Source: Candidatus Eiseniibacteriota bacterium (GTDB lineage Bacteria > Eisenbacteria > RBG-16-71-46). Taken from it: 64,000 nucleotides of DNA. A model generated the notes under the pieces. It had not been told where the DNA came from. It saw nothing but the letters and a program-made list of their open reading frames with translations, and ran no database searches. The translations under genes were made by a program, and so were the position numbers. Location of the stretch: positions 726,423-790,422 of the forward strand of contig CAVQXP010000004.1 of NCBI GenBank assembly GCA_963717935.1, given 5' to 3'. This document shows positions 1-20,771 of the stretch, piece by piece (position 1 is the stretch's first letter; the number at the start of each line of letters is the position of its first letter).

Positions 1-1230
1 GCCGCGCGGGCCGGGCTGCTGCCGAAGCACCCACCGGGGTCGCCGGGACCCGCCGAAGGTGGGTCCGGGTCCGGGTCCGGGGAGGGCGCGCCGGCGCTGG
101 CGGTGCTGGTGGCCTACAACGAGACCGTGGACCAGTACCTGATGCGGCACCCGGAGTACTTCTTCGGCCGTTCGCCCGAGGCCGCGGTGGTGGACCCGCA
201 CAACCCGTACATCCTGGCGCAGCAACTCGCCTGCGCGGCGCTACGAACTGCCACTGACGCCGCGGGGACGAGGCGGTGTTCGGGCCGCAGACCGCGGGCG
301 ATCCTCGCGGCGCTCGAGGAGGCGGGGGAGACGCGCACGATCGATGGCCACACCTACTGGGCGAAGACGGACTTCCCGGCCGCGACCGTCAGCCTGCGCA
401 CCATCTCGGACAACACCTACACCATCATGGACGTGACCCGCGGGAACGCGGTGATCGGCACGGTGGACGCGATCAGCGCGCTGGAGCTGGTCTACCCCGA
501 GGCGGTCTACCTGCACGAGGGCGAGACCTGGTTCGTGAAGCGGCTGGACCTCGAGCAGAAGACGGCGCTGGTCGAGCCGCGCGTGGTGGACTACTACACG
601 CAGCCGGTGCTCGACACGAGCATCCGCGTGCGCGGCGAGCTGCAGGCGAAGACCTGGCGCGGGGAGCGCGCCGTGCTGGGCGAGCTGACCTACTCGTGGC
701 AGACGGTGGCGATGAAGAAGGTCAAGTTCCACTCGCTCGACGCCATCGGCTACCATCCGCTCGACCTGCCGCGGCTCACCCTCGAGACCACGGGCTTCTG
801 GCTGGCGCCCGGCGAGGCCGCCTGGAACGCGGTCGCGCGCCGGGGCCTCAACCCGGTCGAGGGGCTGATGGGCGTGCGCAACCTGTTCATCACGCTGCTC
901 GCGATGCTCAGCATGTGCGATCCGGCCGACCTGGGGGGCAAGATCGATTCGTCGAACCTCGGGCGCCCGGCGCTGTTCATGTTCGACCGCTACCCCGGCA
1001 GGCTGGGTTTCTGCGAGCAGGGCTGGGCGCGTCTCGACGAACTGGCGCAGGCCGCGCTCGAGCACCTCGAGGCCTGCGAGTGCGAGGGCGGCTGCCCGGC
1101 CTGCGTCGGGCTGCCGACCCTATGGCCCGCGCAGCAGCAGGATCCGGATCTGCAGAAGGGCCGCGAGATCCCGGGCAAGGAGGCGGCGCGCACGCTGCTC
1201 CGTCACTGGCGAGGAGAAGAGGACCGATGA
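1..1230 (+). CDS. C-terminal part of a DEAD/DEAH-box helicase with a DUF1998 (MrfA/YprA-like) four-Cys module; 5' end lies outside the window
   Basis: Frame 1 is open from position 1. The C-terminal motif CECEGGCPACVG is the four-Cys zinc module typical of the DUF1998 domain at the end of YprA/MrfA-type helicases. Stop TGA at 1228-1230 overlaps the next ATG (ATGA). Confidence 0.7.
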   Translation, partial: AARAGLLPKHPPGSPGPAEGGSGSGSGEGAPALAVLVAYNETVDQYLMRHPEYFFGRSPEAAVVDPHNPYILAQQLACAALRTATDAAGTRRCSGRRPRAILAALEEAGETRTIDGHTYWAKTDFPAATVSLRTISDNTYTIMDVTRGNAVIGTVDAISALELVYPEAVYLHEGETWFVKRLDLEQKTALVEPRVVDYYTQPVLDTSIRVRGELQAKTWRGERAVLGELTYSWQTVAMKKVKFHSLDAIGYHPLDLPRLTLETTGFWLAPGEAAWNAVARRGLNPVEGLMGVRNLFITLLAMLSMCDPADLGGKIDSSNLGRPALFMFDRYPGRLGFCEQGWARLDELAQAALEHLEACECEGGCPACVGLPTLWPAQQQDPDLQKGREIPGKEAARTLLRHWRGEEDR

Positions 1231-1985
1231 ACTCCCACGAATGGCCGGTCGCGTTCTTCGACGACGACTACCTGCGCATCTACCGCGCCATGATCTCGCC
1301 CGAGATGACCGCGAGCGAAGTGGACTTCCTCGAGGCGGCGATGGCTCTGCCCGCAGGCGGCGAGGTGCTGGACGTGGCCTGCGGCTACGGGCGGCACGCC
1401 ATCGGGCTGGCACGGCGCGGCTACCGGGTGACGGGCGTGGACTTCAACCCGCACTACCTCGCGGCGGCGGCAGGACGACGCGACCGCCGTCGGGGCCACG
1501 GTGCGCTGGGTGGCGGCCGACATGCGTGCGCTGCCTTTCGAGCGCGCCTTCGACGGCGCCTACTCGTACTTCACCTCGTTCGGCTACTTCTCGGACGAGG
1601 AGAACGAACGAGTGCTGGCGGGGTGGCGCGCGCGCTCGGCCCGGCGGGCGGTTCCTGCTCGATGTGCTGAATCGCGACTGGATCCTCACCCACCCGCAGC
1701 AGCGGGTCTGGAACCCGCTCGAGGACGGCTCGCTGCTGATGGAGGAGACCTCGCTGGAACTGCGGCGCTCGCTGGTGATGAATCGCCAGATCCACGTCGC
1801 GCCGCAGAGCGGAGCGCAGATCACCAAGGAGTTCACGCTGCGCGCCTACACCTGCGCCGAGCTGGAATCGCTCTGCACGCGCCACGGGCTCGTGGTGCGC
1901 GAGGTCTGGGGCGGGGCCGACCGCAGCGAGTACACGACCGAGAGCCGCCGGCTGATCCTGCTGGCCGAGCGCGGGCGATCGCGAT
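1227..1985 (+). CDS. Class I SAM-dependent methyltransferase, read through two apparent 1-nt frame breaks (near 1462-1475 and 1620-1640)
   Basis: ATG at 1227. Motif I is EVLDVACGYGRHAIGLARRGYRVTGVDFNPHYL in frame 3. The post-I motif VRWVAADMRALPFERAFDGAYSYFTSFGYFSDEENERVLAG continues in frame 1. The C-terminal part APGGRFLLDVLNRDW...LILLAERG continues in frame 2. Both breaks sit in G/C-rich runs. Confidence 0.6.
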
Positions 1986-2047
1986 GGCTGATCCCGGGCC
2001 CGCTGCGTGCGCGGCTCGGCGAGCTGGCGCGCGCGCGGAAGGCACGC

Positions 2048-3010
2048 ATGGGCGTCGATCCAGCGCCGCAGACCGGAGATCCTGCAGGGGCGGCGGGGCT
2101 TGCACGGACCGGAAGGCGGCCAGGTGCGGACACGCTCGCCTTCCGATCCGTGTCTGCGCCCCGCCGCGGAGATGATCTGGCGGGTGCCCCGTCCGTGTCC
2201 GGGTCCCGCGGAGTGCCACCGGGCTTCTCCGCGCCGGCCGTGGGCGTCGAGGAGTTCCTGCCCGGCGGCGAGTGGCGCGACAGCCCCGACTTCACCGGCC
2301 GGCAGGGCGCCGTCTACGTGCACGAGCGGCTGCGCTCCGGGATCGAGAAGCGGAAGCCCCACTGGGGCCGCATCGAAGCGCCGCCGCCGCACGAGCCGGC
2401 GCTGGTCGCGCTGGCGGCGCGCGGGCTCGAGCACGCGCTGTTCCTCGACCTCGAGACCTGCGGGCTCGCTTCGAGCACGGTCTTCCTGGCCGGCACCATG
2501 CACTGGAACGGCGAGGACTTCGTGCTGCGGCAGTACTTCGCGCGCCACTACGGCGAGGAGGGGCCGCTCCTGCGGGCGCTCAACGAGTCCATGGCCGGCT
2601 TCGAGCACCTGGTGACCTTCAACGGCAGGACCTTCGACGTGCCCTTCCTGCGGGAGCGCGCCGTGGTGCACGGCGTGCGGCTCGCGCTTCCGCCGCACCA
2701 CCTCGACCTGCTCCACGCCGCGCGTCGGCGCTGGCGGGGCGAGTTCGCCGACTGCCGCCTGAAGACCCTCGAGAGCCGGGTCTGCCGGCGCCATCGGGTG
2801 GGAGACGTGCCCGGCGAGGAGATCCCGGGTCTCTACCACGACTACGTGAAGCACGGCGACCCGTACCGGCTCGTGCCGGTGTTCCACCACAACCTGCTCG
2901 ACGTCATCACCATGAGCGACATCCTGCGCGCCCTGTGTCGCCCGGCGCGTGTGGCGACTGCGCCCGGGTCCGGGTCCTGCGGGCCGAAGGGCGGGCGTGC
3001 CCGCCCTTAG
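2048..3010 (+). CDS. MrfB/YprB-like RNase-H-fold (PF13482-type) exonuclease; the start is uncertain and it may be fused to the upstream methyltransferase in the same frame
   Basis: The FLDLETCGL DEDD-like motif, the later NGRTFDVPFL motif, and the C-terminal HNLLDVITMSDILRAL are typical of the YprB family. A possible start ATG at 2048 has GGAAGG 7 nt upstream, but frame 2 is open all the way from the methyltransferase. Confidence 0.55.
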   Translation: MGVDPAPQTGDPAGAAGLARTGRRPGADTLAFRSVSAPRRGDDLAGAPSVSGSRGVPPGFSAPAVGVEEFLPGGEWRDSPDFTGRQGAVYVHERLRSGIEKRKPHWGRIEAPPPHEPALVALAARGLEHALFLDLETCGLASSTVFLAGTMHWNGEDFVLRQYFARHYGEEGPLLRALNESMAGFEHLVTFNGRTFDVPFLRERAVVHGVRLALPPHHLDLLHAARRRWRGEFADCRLKTLESRVCRRHRVGDVPGEEIPGLYHDYVKHGDPYRLVPVFHHNLLDVITMSDILRALCRPARVATAPGSGSCGPKGGRARP

Positions 3011-3102: not shown

Positions 3103-3132
3103 TTGACACCCATCTTTTTGCCCTCCTATACT
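3103..3132 (+). promoter_or_regulatory. Near-consensus sigma70-type promoter (TTGACA, 18 nt, TATACT) upstream of the cold-shock-domain gene; it implies a leader of about 190 nt
   Basis: TTGACA at 3103-3108 and TATACT at 3127-3132. Cold-shock genes classically have long 5' UTRs. Confidence 0.45.
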
Positions 3133-5675: not shown

Positions 5676-5986
5676 CGCACAACCGTCGAGGCGTCCGGCT
5701 GCGCCACCCCGCCCTCACACGCCTTCGGAACTCGTCCGCGGGCGGCGGGGCGCAGACACGGGGCTCGCAGCGGGGGTCCCGGCCCCGGCCGACGCAGGAT
5801 GCGGCGGCCGGGGAATTGCCGGGGAGCGAGCACCGCCAGGGAAAGCCCGCGCAGCGCGCGGGCGCTGGCGGAGCGGAGCGTCCCCGCGAAGGGCCCCGCG
5901 TCTGCGCCCCGCCGCAGGTTCGATCGGGGGGGCATGACGAAGGGGCGGAGCCGTCAGGCTCCGCCCCTTCGGACACCCGGGGCTGC

Positions 5987-7297
5987 TACCAGTGGTACCC
6001 GACGCCGATGCCCACCGCGTTGACGAAGGTCTTGTACTCACCCGTGAACGTGTCGAGCGGGGACGGCAAGTCCGGCTCGAGCGCCACGCCGACGCGGGGC
6101 CGCGCGAAGATGGCGAGTTCGTAGACGTCCACCGTCCAGCGCTTGTCGGTCCCGAGACGCGCAGCCCAGGCCCAGCGTCAGGCCGTGGCGGTCGGCGTCC
6201 GGCAGCAGGGGCGTGACCGCGTTGACCGGCGCGGGCGACTTGTCGAAGTAGTAGCCGGCACGGTAGGCCAGGCAGCCGCGCCGGTACTCGGCCCCGGTGC
6301 GGGCCTGCCACGCGTTGCCGTAGTCCTCGATCTTGCGCTTGTCCGGCGTCAGAGCGCTCTCGAAGTCGATCGGCAGGTCGTTGAAGACCTTCCACTCGTG
6401 CACGTTGAAGTCCGCCTCGACCGTCCACGCGGGCTTCGGGTTCCACGCCGCTCCGACCGACCACATGGCGGGGAAGCGCAGCACCGTGCTGACGCCCTGG
6501 TCCTTCAATACCGCGGCCAACTGCTGCGTCCAGCAGCGAGATGCCCGTCGCGATGCTGGTGAAGTCGGCCGTGCCGTCGTCTATGTGCACCACGACCTTG
6601 CTGCGGTAGTAGGCGCCCAGCTTCCACTCGGACGTCGGCGTGAACAGCACGGCCGCGTTCCATCCCGGGGCGGGAGTGAAGTCCGACGTGAGGTCCACGT
6701 CCGCCACGTGTTCCGTGCCGAGGCCGTAAGCGCTCAGGTCCCGGTAGGCCTGGTTCTTGAGCCCCACCTTGGCCCACATCACGTCGCCACCGGCCGCGAA
6801 GCTCCACTTCTCGTTGGGCGCATAGGCCAGGCAGAGGCTGGCGTTGAGCCCCTGCAGGTCCGCCTTGGTGACGAGATAGCTGCCCGCGAAGGTCTCCGGG
6901 TCCCACTCGACGCCCAGGCCGAAAGGCGAGTTGATCCCGATGCCGACGGCCCAGCGCTTCGCCCAGCTGCGCGAGGCGTAGACCGTGGGCGGGTAGAAGG
7001 TCTGCCGGACCATGTCCGCCGAGCCGTCGGCGCCGGGGTAGGGGGCCTGGCCCGTGAACTCCGTGACGGGCTGCAGCGCGGTGCCGCCCACGTAGATCCA
7101 GGTCCCCTCGAGTCGGGTCATCGCGGCGGGGTTGAAGAACACCGCCGAGGCGTCGTTCACCGAAGCGGTGGCGGCGCCGGCCATCCCGAGGGCGGCGGCG
7201 CCCTGCTCGTAGATGCTGTATCCGGCCGCGTGGGCCAGCGTGGGGAGCAGGACGGCCACGAGCATCGCGGCGGCCAGCAGGGTCCGGATCGTTTCAT
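5987..7297 (-). CDS. fadL: Outer-membrane long-chain fatty-acid transporter of the FadL/OmpP1/TodX family, with about three internal frame breaks
   Basis: Signal peptide and SIYEQGAAALGMAGAATASVNDASAVFFNPAAMT at the N-terminus. C-terminus ...TFVNAVGIGVGYHW with a terminal aromatic residue, stop at 5987-5989. Middle segments lie in other frames. GAGGAG sits 10 nt before the ATG at 7297. Confidence 0.7.
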
Positions 7298-13754: not shown

Positions 13755-14453
13755 GCCGCCCGGCGGCGCACGCTCCGACCGGAATGCGGAAACGCCCGGC
13801 TGGTGGGCCGGGCGTCTGCCGTGGGAGGCCGGAGCTTGCCCACTCCGGGACCCTGCTCGCAACTCTGGAACACTCGCACGACTGGCTAGCTCGCTCGCCA
13901 CGTTCTCGCGTACGTGACGCTACTATTGACGCTCCGAACGGCCGATAAGTTGCAACGCGCGCGCAAAGAACGCGGCGAAGGGGACCAGCGCGGTGGTGCG
14001 GGCGACGAAAGCCGCGTTCATTGGGGTTTTCGCGGGCCTTGCTTGACTTCCTGCTGACCTCGGGCATAGTTGATTCGGGTTTTCGGGCCCACCCCCATGG
14101 GGGGGCACACGGGTCCGACGGCTGTTCCCCCGCTTACCGCGGCCGTCCGGCCGCGCGACCCGAGCGCGGGGGTGCTGACGGGAGCACCGGTACACGGCCA
14201 TGGATCTGCTGTCGCGCTCGAGGGGCTCGTCGCCTGACCGGGAGACGGGTTCTTTTCATTGGTGCGCGGGTGGCCACGGCCCGGCCGTGTCTTTCGCCCG
14301 ATTCTCCGCGGCGGCGTTCGCGCCGGCGCGGTACCTGATCCGGCTGGCTCCGCGCCATGCGGGCCGGACCGACTTCGCCGTTCCTACCGCCGTTGGGCAC
14401 TCCGACACGCACGTCGTCGCGGTCGCCCCCGGCCGGGCTTCCAGGAGAGACTC

Positions 14454-15740
14454 ATGAGCACGAAGGGGTTCAATTCGTTCGAGATCGCCCAGGCCCAGTT
14501 CGACCAGGTCGCCGCACTGCTCGATCTGGACGCCGGGACGCGCGAGTTCCTGCGCTGGCCGATGCGGGAGTACGCCTTCAGCATCCCGGTGCGCATGGAC
14601 GACGGGCACGTGAAGGTCTTCCGCGGCTTCCGCGTGCAGCACAACGACGCCCGCGGACCCTCGAAGGGTGGCATCCGCTTCCACCCGCAGGAGACCGTGG
14701 ACACGGTGCGCGCCCTCTCCATGTGGATGACCTGGAAGTGCGCGGTGGTGGACATCCCGCTGGGCGGCGGCAAGGGCGGCGTGATCTGCGACCCGCACAA
14801 CCTGAGTGCCCGCGAGCAGGAGCAGATCTGCCGTGGCTGGGTGCGGCAGCTGGTGCGCAACGTGGGTCCGGTCCAGGACGTCCCGGCGCCCGACGTCATG
14901 ACCAACGCGCAGCACATGCTGTGGATGCTCGACGAGTTCGAGGCGGTGCGCGGCGGCCGCTACCCCGGGTTCATCACCGGCAAGCCCGTCGGCCTGGGTG
15001 GCTCGCTGGGGCGCACCGAAGCGACCGGCTACGGCGTGGTCTTCACGCTGCGCGAGGCGCTGCGCGAGCACGGCGTCGCGGTCGAATCCACGCGCGCCAG
15101 CGTGCAGGGCTTCGGCAACGTGTCCCAGTACGCCATCCGGCTCTACGAGCAGCTCGGCGGCAAGGTCATCTGCGTGTCCTCGTGGGACCAGAAGGACCAG
15201 GCCTCGTATTCCTTCAAGCGGGTCTCCGGCGTGGACATGGACCAGCTGGTGGGCATCACCGACGTCTTCGGCGGCATCGACAAGGAGAAGGCGAAGAAGC
15301 TCGGCTACGAGGTGCTGCCGGGCGACGCGTGGATCGAGCAGCCGGTCGAGATCCTGATGCCCTGCGCGCTCGAGAACCAGATCACGCCCGTGACCGTGAA
15401 GAAGATCCACGCGGCCGTGAAGTTCGTGGCCGAGGGCGCCAATGGTCCCACCACCACCGAGGCCGACGCGGTGCTCAAGGACCGGGGGATCTACCTGATC
15501 CCGGACTTCCTGGCCAACGCGGGCGGCGTGACCTGCAGCTACTTCGAGCAGGTGCAGTGCAACATGAACTACTACTGGGACAAGGACGAGGTGCTGGGCA
15601 AGCTCGACAGCAAGATGACCTCGGCCTTCCTCGCGGTGAGCGAGCTGGCGCGCGAGCGCAAGCTGTACATGCGTGACGCCGCCTATGTCATCGCCATCAA
15701 CCGCGTCGCCCAGGCCTGCAAGGACCGCGGCTGGGTGTGA
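14454..15740 (+). CDS. gdhA: NAD(P)-dependent glutamate dehydrogenase
   Basis: Catalytic Lys motif PSKGGIRFH. Glycine-rich DIPLGGGKGGV. AGGAGA lies 5 nt before the ATG at 14454. Confidence 0.85.
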   Translation: MSTKGFNSFEIAQAQFDQVAALLDLDAGTREFLRWPMREYAFSIPVRMDDGHVKVFRGFRVQHNDARGPSKGGIRFHPQETVDTVRALSMWMTWKCAVVDIPLGGGKGGVICDPHNLSAREQEQICRGWVRQLVRNVGPVQDVPAPDVMTNAQHMLWMLDEFEAVRGGRYPGFITGKPVGLGGSLGRTEATGYGVVFTLREALREHGVAVESTRASVQGFGNVSQYAIRLYEQLGGKVICVSSWDQKDQASYSFKRVSGVDMDQLVGITDVFGGIDKEKAKKLGYEVLPGDAWIEQPVEILMPCALENQITPVTVKKIHAAVKFVAEGANGPTTTEADAVLKDRGIYLIPDFLANAGGVTCSYFEQVQCNMNYYWDKDEVLGKLDSKMTSAFLAVSELARERKLYMRDAAYVIAINRVAQACKDRGWV

Positions 15741-15792
15741 CGGCGGGAGCCGGGGCGGCGCGCGACGCCGCCCCGGCGACGCGGTCCCGACC

Positions 15793-17595
15793 ATGAACAG
15801 CGACGCTACGGGCGGCCAGGGGTTGCCGCGGTTCGACCGCCGCTTCTTCGAGGGGCGGGAGACCTTCACCACCATCGGCTCGGGCGCTCTCGGGGGCAAG
15901 GCCTCGGGATTGCTCGCCGCGCGTGAAGCGCTGGCGGACCGGCCGGCGGCCCTGCGCCATGAGGACCTGGAGATCTCGGTCCCGACGCTCACCGTGATCA
16001 CCACCAACGCGTTCGACCTGTTCCTCGAGCGTAACCGCCTCCACGAGCTGGTCTACTCGGGCTCCGACGACCGCCAGATCGCGGCCGCGCTGCAGCGAGC
16101 GGAGCTTCCCACGGAGATCGTGGGCGACCTGTGGGCGCTCGTCCGGCGGGTCCACACGCCGCTGGCGGTGCGCTCTTCGAGCCTGCTCGAGGACGCGCTG
16201 GCGCACCCGTTCGCCGGCGTGTACGCGACCAAGATGATCCCCAACAACCCGCACGACCCCGAGACCCGCTTTCGCAAGCTGGTCGAGGCGGTCAAGTTCG
16301 TCTACGCCTCGACCTTCTTCCGCGCGGCGCGCACCTACGTGCGCGTGGCCGGCCGGAAGCCGGAGGAGGAGAAGATGGCGGTGATCGTGCAGGAGGTGGT
16401 GGGGCACCGGCACGGCCCGCGCTTCTACCCCGAGGTCGCGGGGGTGGCCCGCTCGTGGAACTTCTACCCGACGGGACACGCGCAGCCGGCCGACGGTGTG
16501 CTGGACCTGGCGCTCGGTCTGGGCCGGACCATCGTGGACGGCGGGCGCGCGTGGACCTGCTCGCCCGCCCACCCGCGCTCGGTGCCGCCGTTCAACTCGG
16601 TGGGCCACATGATCGAGCAGAGCCAGAGCGAGTTCTGGGCGGTGAACATGGGCCCGCCTCCGGCGTACGACCCCACGATCGAGACGGAATACCTGGTGCA
16701 GGCGGGCCTCGCCGACGCCGAGGCGGACGGGACGCTGGTCCACGTCGCCTCGACCTACGACCCCGACTCGGACCGCGTCGTCATGGGGGTGGGATCCAGC
16801 GGCCCGCGCATCGTGGATTTCGCGCCGATGCTGCGGCTGGCGCGGTGGCCGGTGATCGAGGCGGTGCGCGGCCTGCTCGCGCTCTTCGCCGCCCGCCTGG
16901 GCGCCCCCGTGGAGATCGAGTTCGCGCTCACCTTCCCCGACCCGTCTGCGAAGGGTGCCCGGCCTTCCCCCGGCGCCCCGGAGGGCCTCCCCGCCCGCCT
17001 GGGCTTCCTGCAGGTGCGGCCGATGCTGGTCAGCAGCCAGACGGTCGAGATCGGGGAGGATGAACTTGCCGGTCCGCGGGCCGTGGTGCGCTCCGAGCAC
17101 GTCATGGGGAACGGGGTCATCGAGGGCCTCCGCGATGTCGTGTACGTGAAGCCCGAGGTCTTCGAGGCGCGCCATACGCCGGCGATCGCCGCGGAGGTGG
17201 ACCGCCTGAACCAGGCGCTGGTCGAGGAGGGCCGGTCCTGCGTGCTGGTCGGCTTCGGCCGCTGGGGCAGCGCCGATCCCTGGCTGGGCATCCCGGTCGA
17301 GTGGGCCCAGATCGCGAGCGCACGCGTCATCGTCGAGGCGAGCCTGCCGGCCATGAACGTGGACATGAGCCAGGGCGCGCATTTCTTTCACAACCTGCTG
17401 AGCTTCCGCGTGGTCTACTTCTCCGTGCCGGGCCTCGACGCGTCGGGGATCGACTGGGAGTGGCTGCGCGGGCTCCCGGCCCGGCGGGAGACCGATTTCG
17501 TACGGCACGTGGAGACGCCGGCGCCCCTGCTCGTGAGGGTGGACGGCCGCCGGGGCCGGGGTGTGGTGCTGCGCGGCATGGGGGGGGACGCATGA
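15793..17595 (+). CDS. PEP/pyruvate-binding (PPDK_N, ATP-grasp-like) domain protein
   Basis: VRSSSLLEDALAHPFAGVYATK and MAVIVQEVVGHRHGPRFYPEVAGVARS match the nucleotide-binding domain of PEP synthase / pyruvate phosphate dikinase. Starts 53 nt after gdhA. Confidence 0.65.
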   Translation: MNSDATGGQGLPRFDRRFFEGRETFTTIGSGALGGKASGLLAAREALADRPAALRHEDLEISVPTLTVITTNAFDLFLERNRLHELVYSGSDDRQIAAALQRAELPTEIVGDLWALVRRVHTPLAVRSSSLLEDALAHPFAGVYATKMIPNNPHDPETRFRKLVEAVKFVYASTFFRAARTYVRVAGRKPEEEKMAVIVQEVVGHRHGPRFYPEVAGVARSWNFYPTGHAQPADGVLDLALGLGRTIVDGGRAWTCSPAHPRSVPPFNSVGHMIEQSQSEFWAVNMGPPPAYDPTIETEYLVQAGLADAEADGTLVHVASTYDPDSDRVVMGVGSSGPRIVDFAPMLRLARWPVIEAVRGLLALFAARLGAPVEIEFALTFPDPSAKGARPSPGAPEGLPARLGFLQVRPMLVSSQTVEIGEDELAGPRAVVRSEHVMGNGVIEGLRDVVYVKPEVFEARHTPAIAAEVDRLNQALVEEGRSCVLVGFGRWGSADPWLGIPVEWAQIASARVIVEASLPAMNVDMSQGAHFFHNLLSFRVVYFSVPGLDASGIDWEWLRGLPARRETDFVRHVETPAPLLVRVDGRRGRGVVLRGMGGDA

Positions 17596-20500
17596 CCGAA
17601 CAGGGGCCGATGGACGAGATCCTGAAGGCGTTGCAGGAACGGGCCAAGGAGCTCAACTGCCTCTACCGCATCGACGAGATCGTGCACGACGTGGAGCGGC
17701 CGGTCGAGGATTTGCTGCGCGCGGTGGCCGAGGCGCTGCCGCAGGGCGTGCAGTACCCGGCGCACTGCGTGGCGCGCTGCGTGCTGCGCGATCTCGACGT
17801 GCGCGGCGCGGACTTCGTCGAGACCCCGTGGAAGCTCTCGGCGCCCATCGTCATCTCGAACCGGCGGGTCGGCGAGCTGTGCATCTACTACACGCAGCAG
17901 ATGCCCAGGGCCGACGAGGGGCCGTTCCTCAAGGAGGAGCGCAGGCTCATCGATGCGGCCGCCGACCGTGTCGCCCGGGCCGTCCAGCACCGCGAGCTGA
18001 CCGAGGTGTTCGGGCGCACGCAGATCGGCCACTCCGCGGTGGACGCCGTGCTCCGCCAGGACTGGAGCATCATCCTCGACCTGCTGCGCCGCACCGACCA
18101 GAACCTGTACAACCAGGTCGCGCGCAAGATGCTGAACCACCTGTCCTGGAGCGGCATCGAGGAAGCCAAGGAGCTGCTCCTCAGCATCGCCGGCCCGGAG
18201 GAGGCGTGGGAGCCCGGTGACGAGAATCGCCCGACGCGGCGCAACGCGCCCAAGGACTTCGAGGTCATCAGCGCCGAGACCTTTGAGATCGCGGCTGCCC
18301 ACCTGAGCGAGCAGGAGCTGCTCAGCAGCATCCAGACCTGGATCAAGGAGGACCGGCTCAACTTCCTGGTGCTTGCGCTCGAGAGCAGCAACACCTCGCT
18401 GCCCGAGATCGCCAACGCGCTGGAGCGCTACCACCACACGGGCCTGGACGTGCGCGAGCTGTCGCCCGCCATGCACCTGGGTCTCAAGGTCTCGCTCATC
18501 CGGCGCCTGCTCACCGACAACCTCGAGTTCATCAACACCTGCCGGCCGTGGGTGGAGATCGATGACTTCGTGGACCTCGTCAGCCACACCATCCTGCTGC
18601 CACATAGCCACGGCCGGGTGGGCGGCAAGGCCAGCGGGCTCCTGCTGGCGCGGCACGTCCTGCGGCGCTCTCCCGAGCACCGCGAGCTGCTGGACGGGGT
18701 CAAGGTGCCCCGGACCTGGTACGTGCCCTCGGACGGTCTCCTCCAGTTCCTCGCCTACAACAACCTTGACGACGTCTACAACTGGAAGTACCGCGACTTG
18801 GACGAGATCCGGCAGGAATACCCGCACATGCTCCAGGTCTTCAAGAGCTCGCGTTTCCCGGCCGAGTTCGTGCAGGGGCTCTCGACCGCGCTCGACGACC
18901 TCGGCGACCGGCCGCTCATCGTGCGCAGCTCGAGCCTGCTCGAGGACCGCGCGGGCGCGGCCTTCTCGGGGAAGTACAAGAGCCTGTTCCTCGCGAACCA
19001 GGGCCGCAAGGCCGACCGGCTGGCGGCCCTGCTGGACGCCATCGCCGAGGTCTACGGCTCGGTCTTCGGCCCGGATCCTCTCCAGTACCGCGCGGAGCGC
19101 GGGTTGCTCGAGCATCACGAAGAGATGGGCATCATGATCCAGGAGGTGGTGGGCATGCGCGTGGGCCGCTACTTCCTGCCTTCGTTCGCGGGCGTCGGCT
19201 TCAGCAACAACGAGCTGCGCTGGTCGCCCCGCATCCGGCGCGACGACGGGTTGCTGCGCCTGGTGCCGGGTCTCGGCACGCGCGCGGTGGACCGTCTGGC
19301 CGATGACTACCCGATCCTGGTCGCGCCGGGGCAGCCAGGGCTGCGCGTCAACGTCACCCCGGAGGAGGTCTGCCGCTACTCGCCGCGCAAGGTCGACGTC
19401 ATCAATCTGGAGACCAACTCCTTCGAGACCGTGGACCGCCACACCCTGCTGAAAGAAGTCGGCGGACACCTCCCCAGGCTCGCCCAGATCGTCTCGCTCT
19501 ACGAGCACGACATGCTGCGGCGCCCCGGCGGCCTCGACCTGCGCTTCAACGAGGACAACCTGATCTTCACCTTCGAGGGCCTGTTGACGAACACCGACTT
19601 CGTGCCGCGCATGCAGGCCGTCCTCAAGGTCCTGCGCGAGGCGCAGGGCGTACCGGTGGACATCGAGTTCGCCTCGAACGGAGACGAACTCTACCTGCTG
19701 CAGTGCCGGCCCCAGAGTCACGCGCCGGACACCGCGCCGGCACCCATCCCGCGCGACCTGCCGCAGGAGCGCGTGCTGTTCTCCGCCAACCGCTATGTCT
19801 CGAACGGCGCCGTGCCCGACATCACGCACATCGTCTACGTGGACCCCGATGGCTACAGCCGGCTGGGCGACCTGAACGAGTTGCGCGACGTGAGCCGCGC
19901 CGTCAGCAGTCTCAACAAGATCCTGCCCAAGCGCCAGTTCGTCCTCATGGGACCGGGGCGCTGGGGCAGCCGCGGCGATGTCAAGCTGGGCGTGAGCGTG
20001 ACGTATTCCGACATCAACAACACCGCGATGCTGATCGAGGTCGCGCGCAAGAAGGGCAACTACGTCCCGGATCTCTCGTTCGGCACGCACTTCTTCCAGG
20101 ACCTCATCGAGTCAGGGATCCGCTACCTGCCGCTCTACCCCGACGATCCGGGCGTGGCCTTCAACGAGCCGTTCTTCCGCAAGTCCGAGAACGTCCTGGC
20201 CCGGCTGCTGCCGGACCTCGCGTACCTCGCGGACACCGTGCGGGTGATCGACGTGCCGGAGGCCGCGGGTGGCCAGGTGCTGCGCGTGCTCATGAACGCC
20301 GACCTCGAGGAGGCCGTGGGCGTGCTGGCCCCGCCGGGCGTGGCCGTGGTCACGTCGGCAGCGCTGCCGAGCCCCACGGCGCGGCCGGCGGAGGACCACT
20401 GGCGCTGGCGGTTGCGCATGGCGCAGAAGGTCGCCGCGGACCTCGATCCCGCGCGCTTCGGCGTCCACGCTTTCTACGTCTTCGGCAGCACGAAGAACGC

Positions 20501-20771
20501 CTCGGCCGGGCCCGGCAGCGACATCGACGTCATCATCCACTTCAGGGGCACGCCGGAGCAGCGCCGGGAGCTGGAACTCTGGCTCGAGGGCTGGAGCCTG
20601 TGCCTTGCGGAGATGAACTTCCTGCGCACCGGCTACCACAGCGAGGGCCTGCTGGACGTGCACCTCGTCACCGACGAAGACCTCGTGCGGCAGACCAGCT
20701 ACGCGGCCAAGATCGGGGCCATCACGGACGCCGCGCGTCCGCTCATGCTGGGAGGCCCGGCGGCGGGATGA
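17592..20771 (+). CDS. Large multidomain protein: GAF-like N-terminus, PPDK_N PEP/pyruvate-binding domain, and a C-terminal Pol-beta-type nucleotidyltransferase domain
   Basis: ATGA overlap with the previous CDS. N-terminus ELNCLYRIDEIV...CIYYTQQMP. Central part SHGRVGGKASGLLLARHV...LIVRSSSLLEDRAGAAFSGKYKSLFL...MGIMIQEVVGMRVGRYFLPSFAGVGFS. C-terminus FGVHAFYVFGSTKNASAGPGSDIDVIIHF, a GS...DxD nucleotidyltransferase motif. Confidence 0.65.
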   Translation: MTEQGPMDEILKALQERAKELNCLYRIDEIVHDVERPVEDLLRAVAEALPQGVQYPAHCVARCVLRDLDVRGADFVETPWKLSAPIVISNRRVGELCIYYTQQMPRADEGPFLKEERRLIDAAADRVARAVQHRELTEVFGRTQIGHSAVDAVLRQDWSIILDLLRRTDQNLYNQVARKMLNHLSWSGIEEAKELLLSIAGPEEAWEPGDENRPTRRNAPKDFEVISAETFEIAAAHLSEQELLSSIQTWIKEDRLNFLVLALESSNTSLPEIANALERYHHTGLDVRELSPAMHLGLKVSLIRRLLTDNLEFINTCRPWVEIDDFVDLVSHTILLPHSHGRVGGKASGLLLARHVLRRSPEHRELLDGVKVPRTWYVPSDGLLQFLAYNNLDDVYNWKYRDLDEIRQEYPHMLQVFKSSRFPAEFVQGLSTALDDLGDRPLIVRSSSLLEDRAGAAFSGKYKSLFLANQGRKADRLAALLDAIAEVYGSVFGPDPLQYRAERGLLEHHEEMGIMIQEVVGMRVGRYFLPSFAGVGFSNNELRWSPRIRRDDGLLRLVPGLGTRAVDRLADDYPILVAPGQPGLRVNVTPEEVCRYSPRKVDVINLETNSFETVDRHTLLKEVGGHLPRLAQIVSLYEHDMLRRPGGLDLRFNEDNLIFTFEGLLTNTDFVPRMQAVLKVLREAQGVPVDIEFASNGDELYLLQCRPQSHAPDTAPAPIPRDLPQERVLFSANRYVSNGAVPDITHIVYVDPDGYSRLGDLNELRDVSRAVSSLNKILPKRQFVLMGPGRWGSRGDVKLGVSVTYSDINNTAMLIEVARKKGNYVPDLSFGTHFFQDLIESGIRYLPLYPDDPGVAFNEPFFRKSENVLARLLPDLAYLADTVRVIDVPEAAGGQVLRVLMNADLEEAVGVLAPPGVAVVTSAALPSPTARPAEDHWRWRLRMAQKVAADLDPARFGVHAFYVFGSTKNASAGPGSDIDVIIHFRGTPEQRRELELWLEGWSLCLAEMNFLRTGYHSEGLLDVHLVTDEDLVRQTSYAAKIGAITDAARPLMLGGPAAG

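Follow-up and report, generated by a model that had tools for sequence, protein, structure and literature searches.

Gene content of the locus

Positions 1–3010 of the 64,000-nucleotide stretch of a Candidatus Eisenbacteria genome analysed here (the window; G+C content 71.6%) hold the 3' two-thirds of a three-gene operon, in which the gene of an S-adenosylmethionine (SAM)-dependent methyltransferase lies between the genes of an MrfA-like helicase and an MrfB-like exonuclease. The operon is a form of the MrfAB repair operon that is specific to one lineage and comprises three genes; it is neither a fusion nor a defence-like module. The domains and their order are those given by the first-pass annotation, which had been made from the sequence alone, and the Pfam and PDB matches agree with it. 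The division into three separate genes, taken jointly with the assignment of the frame breaks and of an apparent fusion to artefact, is put forward with good confidence. The features of the three genes are listed below, lengths marked as corrected being those obtained once the frame breaks described in the next section have been undone.

1–1230, + strand: C-terminal half (about 409 amino acids) of an MrfA/YprA-type superfamily 2 (SF2) helicase, with winged helix, OB/connector and MZB (DUF1998) domains; frame 1, Pfam and PDB matches
1075–1104, + strand: four-cysteine zinc cluster CxCx3CxxC (CECEGGCPAC) of the MZB domain, aligning with CPCHDGCPSC of YprA
1228–1230, + strand: helicase stop codon TGA, read in the sequence
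1227–1230, + strand: ATGA, overlap of helicase stop and methyltransferase start, read in the sequence
1227–1991, + strand: stand-alone class I SAM methyltransferase gene (254 amino acids, corrected), ATG at 1227, stop TGA at 1989–1991; Pfam matches and orthologues
1365–1391, + strand: SAM-binding motif I VLDVACGYG; D49, G53 and G55 invariant in the orthologue alignment
1984–3010, + strand: MrfB-type DEDDh 3'-5' exonuclease gene (about 341 amino acids, corrected), ATG at 1984, stop TAG at 3008–3010; RNase_H_2 match, E-value 1.5e-30
2441–2467, + strand: Exo I FLDLETCGL, aligning with the MrfB segment of catalytic D107 and E109 (8un9 alignment)
2618–2650, + strand: Exo II FNGRTFDVPFL, aligning with YNGKAFDWP of MrfB, expected D172 (8un9 alignment)
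2885–2905, + strand: Exo III HHNLLDV, aligning with HHNEMDV of MrfB, expected H258 and D262 (8un9 alignment)

The helicase part matches WHD_HRQ1 (E-value 1.2e-13) and MZB/DUF1998 (2.8e-18) in Pfam, and aligns with YprA of Bacillus subtilis (PDB 6znp) with an E-value of 7.7e-62 over YprA residues 374–732, the zinc cluster included; the DUF1998 C-terminus with CECEGGCPAC was thus correctly recognized at first reading. The N-terminal RecA core lies upstream of position 1, as had also been noted, and the intact helicases of relatives (790–846 amino acids), of which the one at locus L003 is 92% identical, consist of DEAD, Helicase_C, WHD_HRQ1 and MZB domains. With the TIGR03817 profile (DECH_helic, SftH-type helicases), of which positions 372–717 are covered, the C-terminal half by itself reaches 240.7 bits, the cut-off of 874 bits being one for the whole protein. 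Its partner in the operon is an MrfB-type exonuclease gene, not a PLD, Vsr or other defence partner, and the helicase is, as far as sequence comparison goes, an MrfA/YprA homologue that fits the repair branch of the YprA family.

The exonuclease is matched by the crystallised core of B. subtilis MrfB (PDB 8un9) with an E-value of 9e-20, so that the earlier proposal of an MrfA/MrfB homologous pair holds for both proteins. The motif FLDLETCGL falls inside the RNase_H_2 match, as proposed, and all five DEDDh positions, numbered after the MrfB catalytic residues (PMC11194089), are invariant across 17 homologues. After correction the N-terminus reads MADPGPLRARLGEL, as in orthologues of 351–352 amino acids, and in the N-terminal region a conserved LRxRLGEL helix precedes a stretch whose length varies; what had been described as a low-complexity linker of about 80 amino acids is actually this region of the exonuclease itself. 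Compared with L003 (6817–6897), the variable region of the window carries an in-frame 81-nucleotide deletion (at 2056) and a 27-nucleotide insertion (2170–2196). Among close species the length of this segment varies freely; over the flanking genes, those of the helicase and the methyltransferase, L003 is 94% identical to the window. The C-terminus is not YprB-like in the sense first suggested, since the protein ends about 24 amino acids after RNase_H_2 with no further Pfam domain and no tetratricopeptide repeat (TPR) domain was found; orthologues are 327–357 amino acids long. In MrfB the C-terminal TPR domain spans approximately residues 280–413, and a TPR-less construct still complements in B. 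subtilis at high expression (PMC11194089). Because the TPR domain is absent, the predicted exonuclease is MrfB-like and not a full architectural match.

In three relatives (L001, L003 and L004) the helicase (790–846 amino acids), the methyltransferase (254–255) and the exonuclease (351–352) are separately called genes. Their ends overlap by 4 nucleotides between helicase and methyltransferase (ATGA, the overlap already noted in the window at 1227–1230) and by 8 nucleotides between methyltransferase and exonuclease (ATGGCTGA). The DNA of L003 is 94% identical to that of the window.

Single-base frame breaks and the apparent fusion

Insertions and deletions (indels) were called from pairwise DNA alignments with four relatives that are 93–94% identical, among them L003, L005 and L006. 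Eight single-base indels were found in the operon, none of them present in the relatives, where the first-pass annotation had suspected two 1-nucleotide frame breaks (at about 1462–1475 and 1620–1640). They are listed below together with the open reading frame (ORF) that results from them.

240, 262 and 294, + strand: three single-base insertions in the helicase gene, frame 1 to 2 to 3 to 1; alignments to L003, L005 and L006
1471, + strand: single-base insertion in the methyltransferase gene, frame 3 to 1; alignments
1623 and 1637, + strand: two single-base deletions in the methyltransferase gene, frame 1 to 3 to 2; alignments
1976, + strand: single-base insertion five codons before the methyltransferase stop, diverting the frame from the TGA at 1989–1991; alignments
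1997–1999, + strand: extra C in a run of C (CCC, CC in relatives) at exonuclease codons 5–6, frame 1 to 2; alignments
1241–3010, + strand: literal 589-amino-acid ORF in frame 2, an artefact; ORF listing compared with alignments

In the helicase gene the motif AAYELPL, identical in B. subtilis YprA, is scrambled in the literal frame 1, and YELPLT is read in frame 2 at 242–259. Restoring the two deletions at 1623 and 1637 gives VLAGVARALGPGGRFLLDV, as in orthologues, and when the indels are undone both the methyltransferase stop at 1989–1991 and the exonuclease start at 1984 are regained, in the same 8-nucleotide arrangement that the relatives have. The literal ORF begins with about 130 out-of-frame residues of the methyltransferase N-terminus, continues with the last 113 methyltransferase residues and ends with the exonuclease; it therefore lacks the SAM-binding half of the methyltransferase. 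The earlier observation that frame 2 stays open from the methyltransferase into the exonuclease is correct for the ORF at 1241–3010 as it stands, but the frame is open only because of the last two insertions (1976 and 1997–1999). At a G+C content as high as that of the window, stops are rarely met in wrong frames.

A possible methyltransferase–exonuclease fusion, as raised by the first-pass annotation, was rejected. At 86 of the 87 loci with both genes the methyltransferase ends in a stop of its own, the best 120 methyltransferase homologues are all stand-alone proteins (175–283 amino acids, nearly all of about 250–260), and the indels that create the fused frame are absent from relatives. That the two proteins are nevertheless truly fused, or joined by programmed frameshifting, is regarded as extremely improbable: the literal ORF does span both genes, and at L002 a methyltransferase C-terminus is in frame with the exonuclease with no stop between, but the first of these lacks the SAM-binding half behind its out-of-frame start, the second is a scaffold with a run of N in a highly fragmented assembly, and relatives 94% identical show the stop/start overlap. 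Moreover, the frame changes that would be needed differ in direction and lie at unrelated sites. L002 (2434–3996; GCA_009772355.1, WNFK01237391.1; protein P0001) is the only one of the 87 loci with such a stop-free run; its exonuclease lacks the N-terminal LRxRLGEL helix and the run of N lies inside the methyltransferase. It may represent a genuine, rare fusion or an error of assembly. The few proteins that appear fused in a survey of Pfam domain combinations among 5.8 billion proteins, with mixed methyltransferase, MZB or RNase_H_2 domains (P0001, P0067, P0068 and P0120), show obvious wrong-frame translation or, in the case of P0001, stem from the N-gap scaffold.

Frame breaks of the same kind occur elsewhere in the window. 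A frame-tracking hidden Markov model built on codon-position G+C and run over the 64 kb recovered the known breaks and gave 22 candidate frame switches that have no stop nearby. By Pfam, the IMPDH profile of guaB is matched at positions 1–33 in one frame and 35–345 in another (break at about 47,936), the SecD domains of secD fall into different frames, with switches at about 45,544 and 45,751, and the PP-loop and C-terminal domains of TilS are frame-split at about 24,841 in tilS, in which another break lies at about 25,486. The FadL/Toluene_X gene carries two single-base insertions relative to relatives, at 6157 and 6526. Further breaks were flagged in secF (about 44,599), a peroxiredoxin gene (about 33,004) and an OmpA-like gene (about 30,419).

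Since guaB, secD and tilS are broken in a similar way, sequence error is the most likely cause of the eight indels, as judged from the alignments. If the indels were instead real, the three genes would form a pseudogene cluster that had decayed recently: the methyltransferase would be dead, the exonuclease truncated at its N-terminus and the helicase scrambled over a patch of 18 residues. This is considered improbable. The density of the indels, eight in the first 2 kb and two in the following 7 kb, would fit such decay, and so would the partial dispensability of the operon in evolution, seen in the 13 species that have no methyltransferase (see below). On the other hand, a viable genome would be unlikely to tolerate the same type of break in the essential genes guaB, secD and tilS, and nucleotide identity to the relatives is highest, at 94%, in precisely this region. 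The 113 out-of-frame codons of the methyltransferase, when compared with L003 in the ancestral frame, show 15 synonymous and 4 non-synonymous differences, which indicates that selection acted on the ancestral frame; eight indels unaccompanied by relaxed substitution are unlike those of usual pseudogenes. For users of this contig, in which single-base indels seem to be many, it follows that an unusual ORF, fusion or pseudogene needs to be checked against relatives or reads.

Conservation and predicted class of the methyltransferase

A profile of the exonuclease found 526 loci in species-representative genomes, of which the best 80 were examined; 72 of these had enough upstream sequence to be evaluated. 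Almost all of the best 80 are labelled Candidatus Eisenbacteria, and the few others are bins of soil metagenome-assembled genomes (MAGs) with Eisenbacteria-like contigs. The methyltransferase lies directly upstream of the exonuclease at 58 of the 72 loci: helicase, methyltransferase and exonuclease are contiguous at 46 of these 58, the helicase would lie beyond the contig end at 7, and it is displaced or not in the flank at the other 5. At 13 of the 72 the helicase adjoins the exonuclease with no methyltransferase between them, and one locus has an unclear arrangement. When the exonuclease domains were placed in a rough neighbour-joining tree, the loci on the deepest branches had no methyltransferase, and about nine methyltransferase-less loci are scattered in the main clade; among more distant exonuclease homologues (40–47% identity) either the helicase adjoins with no methyltransferase or there is no helicase. 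The distribution is most simply explained if the methyltransferase gene was inserted once between an ancestral mrfA and mrfB and was later lost several times.

The methyltransferase itself was followed in metagenome loci as well. Wherever flanks are present, homologues at least 59% identical are in the operon, with the exception of L101, which has no helicase in its upstream flank, and at 46 metagenome loci with homologues 33–43% identical neither the helicase nor the exonuclease is ever nearby. In all, about five loci with orthologues of at least 59% identity have no adjacent helicase. The position is kept in most species, the homologues found elsewhere are of low identity and the SAM-binding residues are invariant; for these reasons the methyltransferase is no chance neighbour but belongs to the operon as a conserved component specific to one lineage, a large clade of Eisenbacteria. 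The first-pass annotation had considered a methyltransferase between mrfA and mrfB to be outside the textbook arrangement, and the same orthologue indeed occupies that position in most Eisenbacteria species. Its alternative of an ordinary repair locus with an incidental neighbour stands in that the methyltransferase has its own stop and resembles small-molecule enzymes, but fails in that most relatives keep the gene.

Two further observations concern these homologues and loci. A family of 519-amino-acid proteins (P0055 and its relatives P0053–P0064), about 40% identical to the operon methyltransferase, has apparent extra sequence beyond one domain; a link to helicases was looked for in a single context, L165 (3093–4652 on a 4.38-Mb contig), and not found there, the gene lying among BioY, oxidoreductase and short-chain dehydrogenase genes. 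Seven loci (L010, L026, L030, L031, L042, L047 and L071) are in soil MAG bins labelled Terriglobales, Udaeobacter, Saccharimonadaceae, Methylomirabilota, Verrucomicrobiia, Limnocylindria and Acidiferrales; they carry the Eisenbacteria-type operon with an exonuclease 57–83% identical, and the contigs are probably mis-binned.

The corrected protein matches Methyltransf_25 (E-value 6.3e-21) and Methyltransf_11 (5.1e-16), which bears out its recognition as a class I methyltransferase from motif I. Among NCBIfam models the daptide methyltransferase (the best, with 71 bits against a cut-off of 175), UbiE and TehB were rejected because none of them comes near its cut-off. Among solved structures, the closest in sequence is NmbA (PDB 9RI2), matched over the full length with an E-value of 1.2e-30 and about 30% identity; the Eisenbacteria orthologues have a median identity to NmbA of 34% and a maximum of 37%. 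An AlphaFold model made from 27 homologues (predicted local distance difference test score 90.9) was compared with the PDB by Foldseek. The top matches were CypM, which methylates peptide N-termini (TM-score 0.81–0.87), NmbA, CcbJ, several natural-product C-methyltransferases, the sugar N,N-dimethyltransferases TylM1 and DesVI, and glycine N-methyltransferase (GNMT), and no DNA methyltransferase occurs among the 50 best matches listed. Neither a (D/N/S)PP(Y/F/W) motif nor a C5 PC/ENV motif or a target-recognition domain was found in the 254 amino acids. Whether the enzyme clusters with DNA or with small-molecule methyltransferases was a question of the first-pass annotation; by fold it falls with small-molecule and peptide N-methyltransferases, and we infer from the model that it is an amine-directed N-methyltransferase of small molecules or peptides, of the NmbA/CypM/CcbJ structural class, and not a DNA methyltransferase.

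NmbA N-methylates the cysteine amine of bacillithiol, and its authors used a sequence network of 35–95% identity and a BLAST screen with E-values of at most 1e-20, more than 25% identity and more than 80% coverage (PMC12719100). The Eisenbacteria enzyme passes this loose screen and is at the edge of the identity threshold of the network. By eye, with no profile search run, no look-alikes of BshA, BshB or BshC were seen among the other translated genes of the window, and a literature search found no specific published link between bacillithiol and mitomycin.

An alternative is that the methyltransferase has nothing to do with repair and is either the NmbA orthologue of the lineage, making N-methyl-bacillithiol, or another metabolic enzyme that persists in the operon through the shared transcript. 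Though unlikely, this is the main rival reading of the gene. In its favour, NmbA is the best characterised homologue, NmbA homologues are frequent in the related phyla Gemmatimonadota, Bacteroidota and Chlorobiota (PMC12719100), and several losses of the gene left helicase and exonuclease side by side. Against it, the gene has the same place and direction in 58 species, with protein identities as low as 57%, the overlapping gene ends in close relatives suggest coupled translation, orthologues were found nowhere outside this context, and a purely selfish position in a two-gene operon would be expected to erode faster.

Defence, repair and comparison with known systems

The operon appears to end before a putative promoter, listed here with the neighbouring genes of the window.

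3103–3132, + strand: strong, near-consensus sigma-70-like promoter, TTGACA, 18-nucleotide spacer, TATACT; 11 of 12 matches, 0 expected in shuffles
about 3323 (start): zinc-ribbon/cold-shock-domain gene
5676–5990: stretch in which the DUF885 gene is followed directly by a FadL-type outer-membrane gene
14,426–15,737: glutamate dehydrogenase-like gene, adjoining the following pair (by eye only)
15,738–20,751: two adjacent large genes of about 617 and 1053 amino acids, phosphoenolpyruvate (PEP)-utilising/pyruvate phosphate dikinase-like (by eye only)

The promoter is predicted to open the next transcription unit, that of the zinc-ribbon/cold-shock-domain gene, and hence to mark the end of the operon. 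This gene and the DUF885 gene also follow the operon in L001, L003 and L004, and housekeeping neighbours of the operon are common to the close relatives examined. Beyond DUF885 the order differs, with an alpha/beta-hydrolase gene between the DUF885 and FadL-type genes in L001 (12388–14656), L003 and L004, and additionally a GDSL-lipase gene in L001.

The combination of helicase, methyltransferase and nuclease had also been read as a possible defence-like module. A survey of the YprA family places a repair branch, of MrfB-associated helicases, apart from a defence branch comprising DISARM, Dpd, Druantia and ARMADA, in which PglX- or DrmM-type DNA methyltransferases occur with PLD, Vsr or PD-(D/E)xK nucleases (10.1101/2025.09.15.676423). 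PADLOC, run on the intact L003 proteins and on the fragments from the window, gave matches only to the generic SF2 core or Rossmann fold and none for the exonuclease: the L003 helicase matched BrxHI with 164 bits (profile positions 21–347 of 698), DrmA with 58 bits and, in fragments, DruE with about 100 bits or less, and the methyltransferase matched DrmMII and MTase_II with about 17–18 bits over 30–57 residues of the SAM loop. A DISARM or Druantia signature was not found at the locus, where DrmB, a PLD nuclease and a PglX- or DrmMI/MII-type DNA methyltransferase are all lacking.

That the operon is an anti-phage module related to DISARM, Druantia or ARMADA, with the methyltransferase marking self DNA, is thus very improbable, even though DUF1998 helicases of the YprA family are central to DISARM, Dpd, Druantia and ARMADA (10.1101/2025.09.15.676423) and weak PADLOC matches exist for DruE over the zinc domain and for mad2 and DrmMII over the SAM-binding fold. 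These matches cover generic folds, the structural neighbours of the methyltransferase are all small-molecule or peptide enzymes, and the helicase is paired with an MrfB homologue, which belongs to the repair branch of the published phylogeny (10.1101/2025.09.15.676423). In addition, the locus is vertically conserved across the phylum, with the same housekeeping neighbours in the close relatives examined. The defence-like module was consequently given up in favour of a repair operon.

How this repair operon might work can be outlined by analogy with MrfAB of B. subtilis. The helicase would translocate 3'-5' on the damaged strand, and the DEDDh exonuclease, probably tethered to it by the conserved N-terminal helix bound on the winged helix as modelled for MrfB, would degrade the strand with the bulky mitomycin-type adduct, independently of UvrABC. 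The methyltransferase, to go by its predicted fold, may N-methylate not DNA but a metabolite of low molecular weight, which could be a thiol resembling bacillithiol or else the genotoxic electrophile. Such methylation would limit or process the same chemical damage that the helicase–nuclease pair removes from DNA. An amine-directed role on a small metabolite, giving chemical protection beside excision, is our best guess from the model, and a tentative one. It is possible, if somewhat unlikely, that the MrfA–MrfB machine has here gained a dedicated third component, an NmbA/CypM-like amine N-methyltransferase acting with the helicase and the exonuclease.

Several points weigh against the reading of the locus as a whole. 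What MrfAB does has been established in B. subtilis alone, and only closely related alleles are reported to complement (10.1101/2025.09.15.676423). The 13 species that have no methyltransferase, whether they lost it or never had it, indicate that the helicase–exonuclease pair does not require it, and the argument for a coupling of the three genes, physical or functional, is drawn solely from gene order and overlapping gene ends. The identity to NmbA, about 30–37%, is no higher than that of unrelated homologues elsewhere. The indels were judged against relatives, the closest of which among the genome and metagenome contigs searched is 94.4% identical, so that they are probable rather than proven errors; their clustering here, with eight in 2 kb and two in the next 7 kb, could be real recent decay of the operon.

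MrfAB was described only recently, as a pathway of repair specific to natural antibiotics. The paper on the MrfB structure raises 'unknown partners' (PMC11194089), and a gene conserved inside the operon in dozens of species offers a concrete candidate for an MrfAB partner or a clue to the substrate. If the methyltransferase does act together with the helicase and the exonuclease, for example by N-methylating a bacillithiol-type thiol or the DNA-reactive natural product itself, the operon would provide the first example of one that encodes both the chemical detoxification and the helicase–nuclease excision of a single lesion.

Among known systems, DISARM, Druantia and ARMADA share with the Eisenbacteria operon a YprA-family helicase with DUF1998/MZB and the combination of helicase, methyltransferase and nuclease. 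They differ in having large DNA methyltransferases, whereas the operon has a small-molecule-type methyltransferase of 254 amino acids and a DEDDh exonuclease. The best superpositions of the methyltransferase model are with CypM (TM-score 0.81–0.87, root-mean-square deviation about 2.5 Å) and CcbJ (TM-score about 0.82), which are alike in size and in the four-strand cap. However, CypM, CcbJ and TylM1 have a sequence identity of 20–26% to it and are encoded in biosynthetic gene clusters, whereas the surroundings of this operon contain none. NmbA of Chlorobaculum tepidum (9RI2), the second-ranked Foldseek match, has the same class I Rossmann fold with a beta-strand cap, with a TM-score of 0.64–0.72 between crystal and model as against 0.81–0.87 for CypM; according to its authors the cap in the crystal differs from the AlphaFold prediction (PMC12719100). 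For NmbA, no link to helicases or nucleases is described.

The closest comparison is with MrfA and MrfB of B. subtilis. The helicases have the same C-terminal architecture of winged helix, connector and four-cysteine MZB domain, and the exonucleases have in common the RNase_H_2 fold and all five DEDDh residues. In B. subtilis the helicase gene is given as immediately upstream of the exonuclease gene, whereas in the Eisenbacteria operon the gene of the 254-amino-acid methyltransferase stands between them, and MrfB (413 amino acids) has the C-terminal TPR domain that the Eisenbacteria exonuclease lacks. In both exonucleases an N-terminal segment precedes the catalytic core, the Eisenbacteria version being longer and variable in length, and in MrfB this segment is predicted to wrap around the winged helix of MrfA (PMC11194089).

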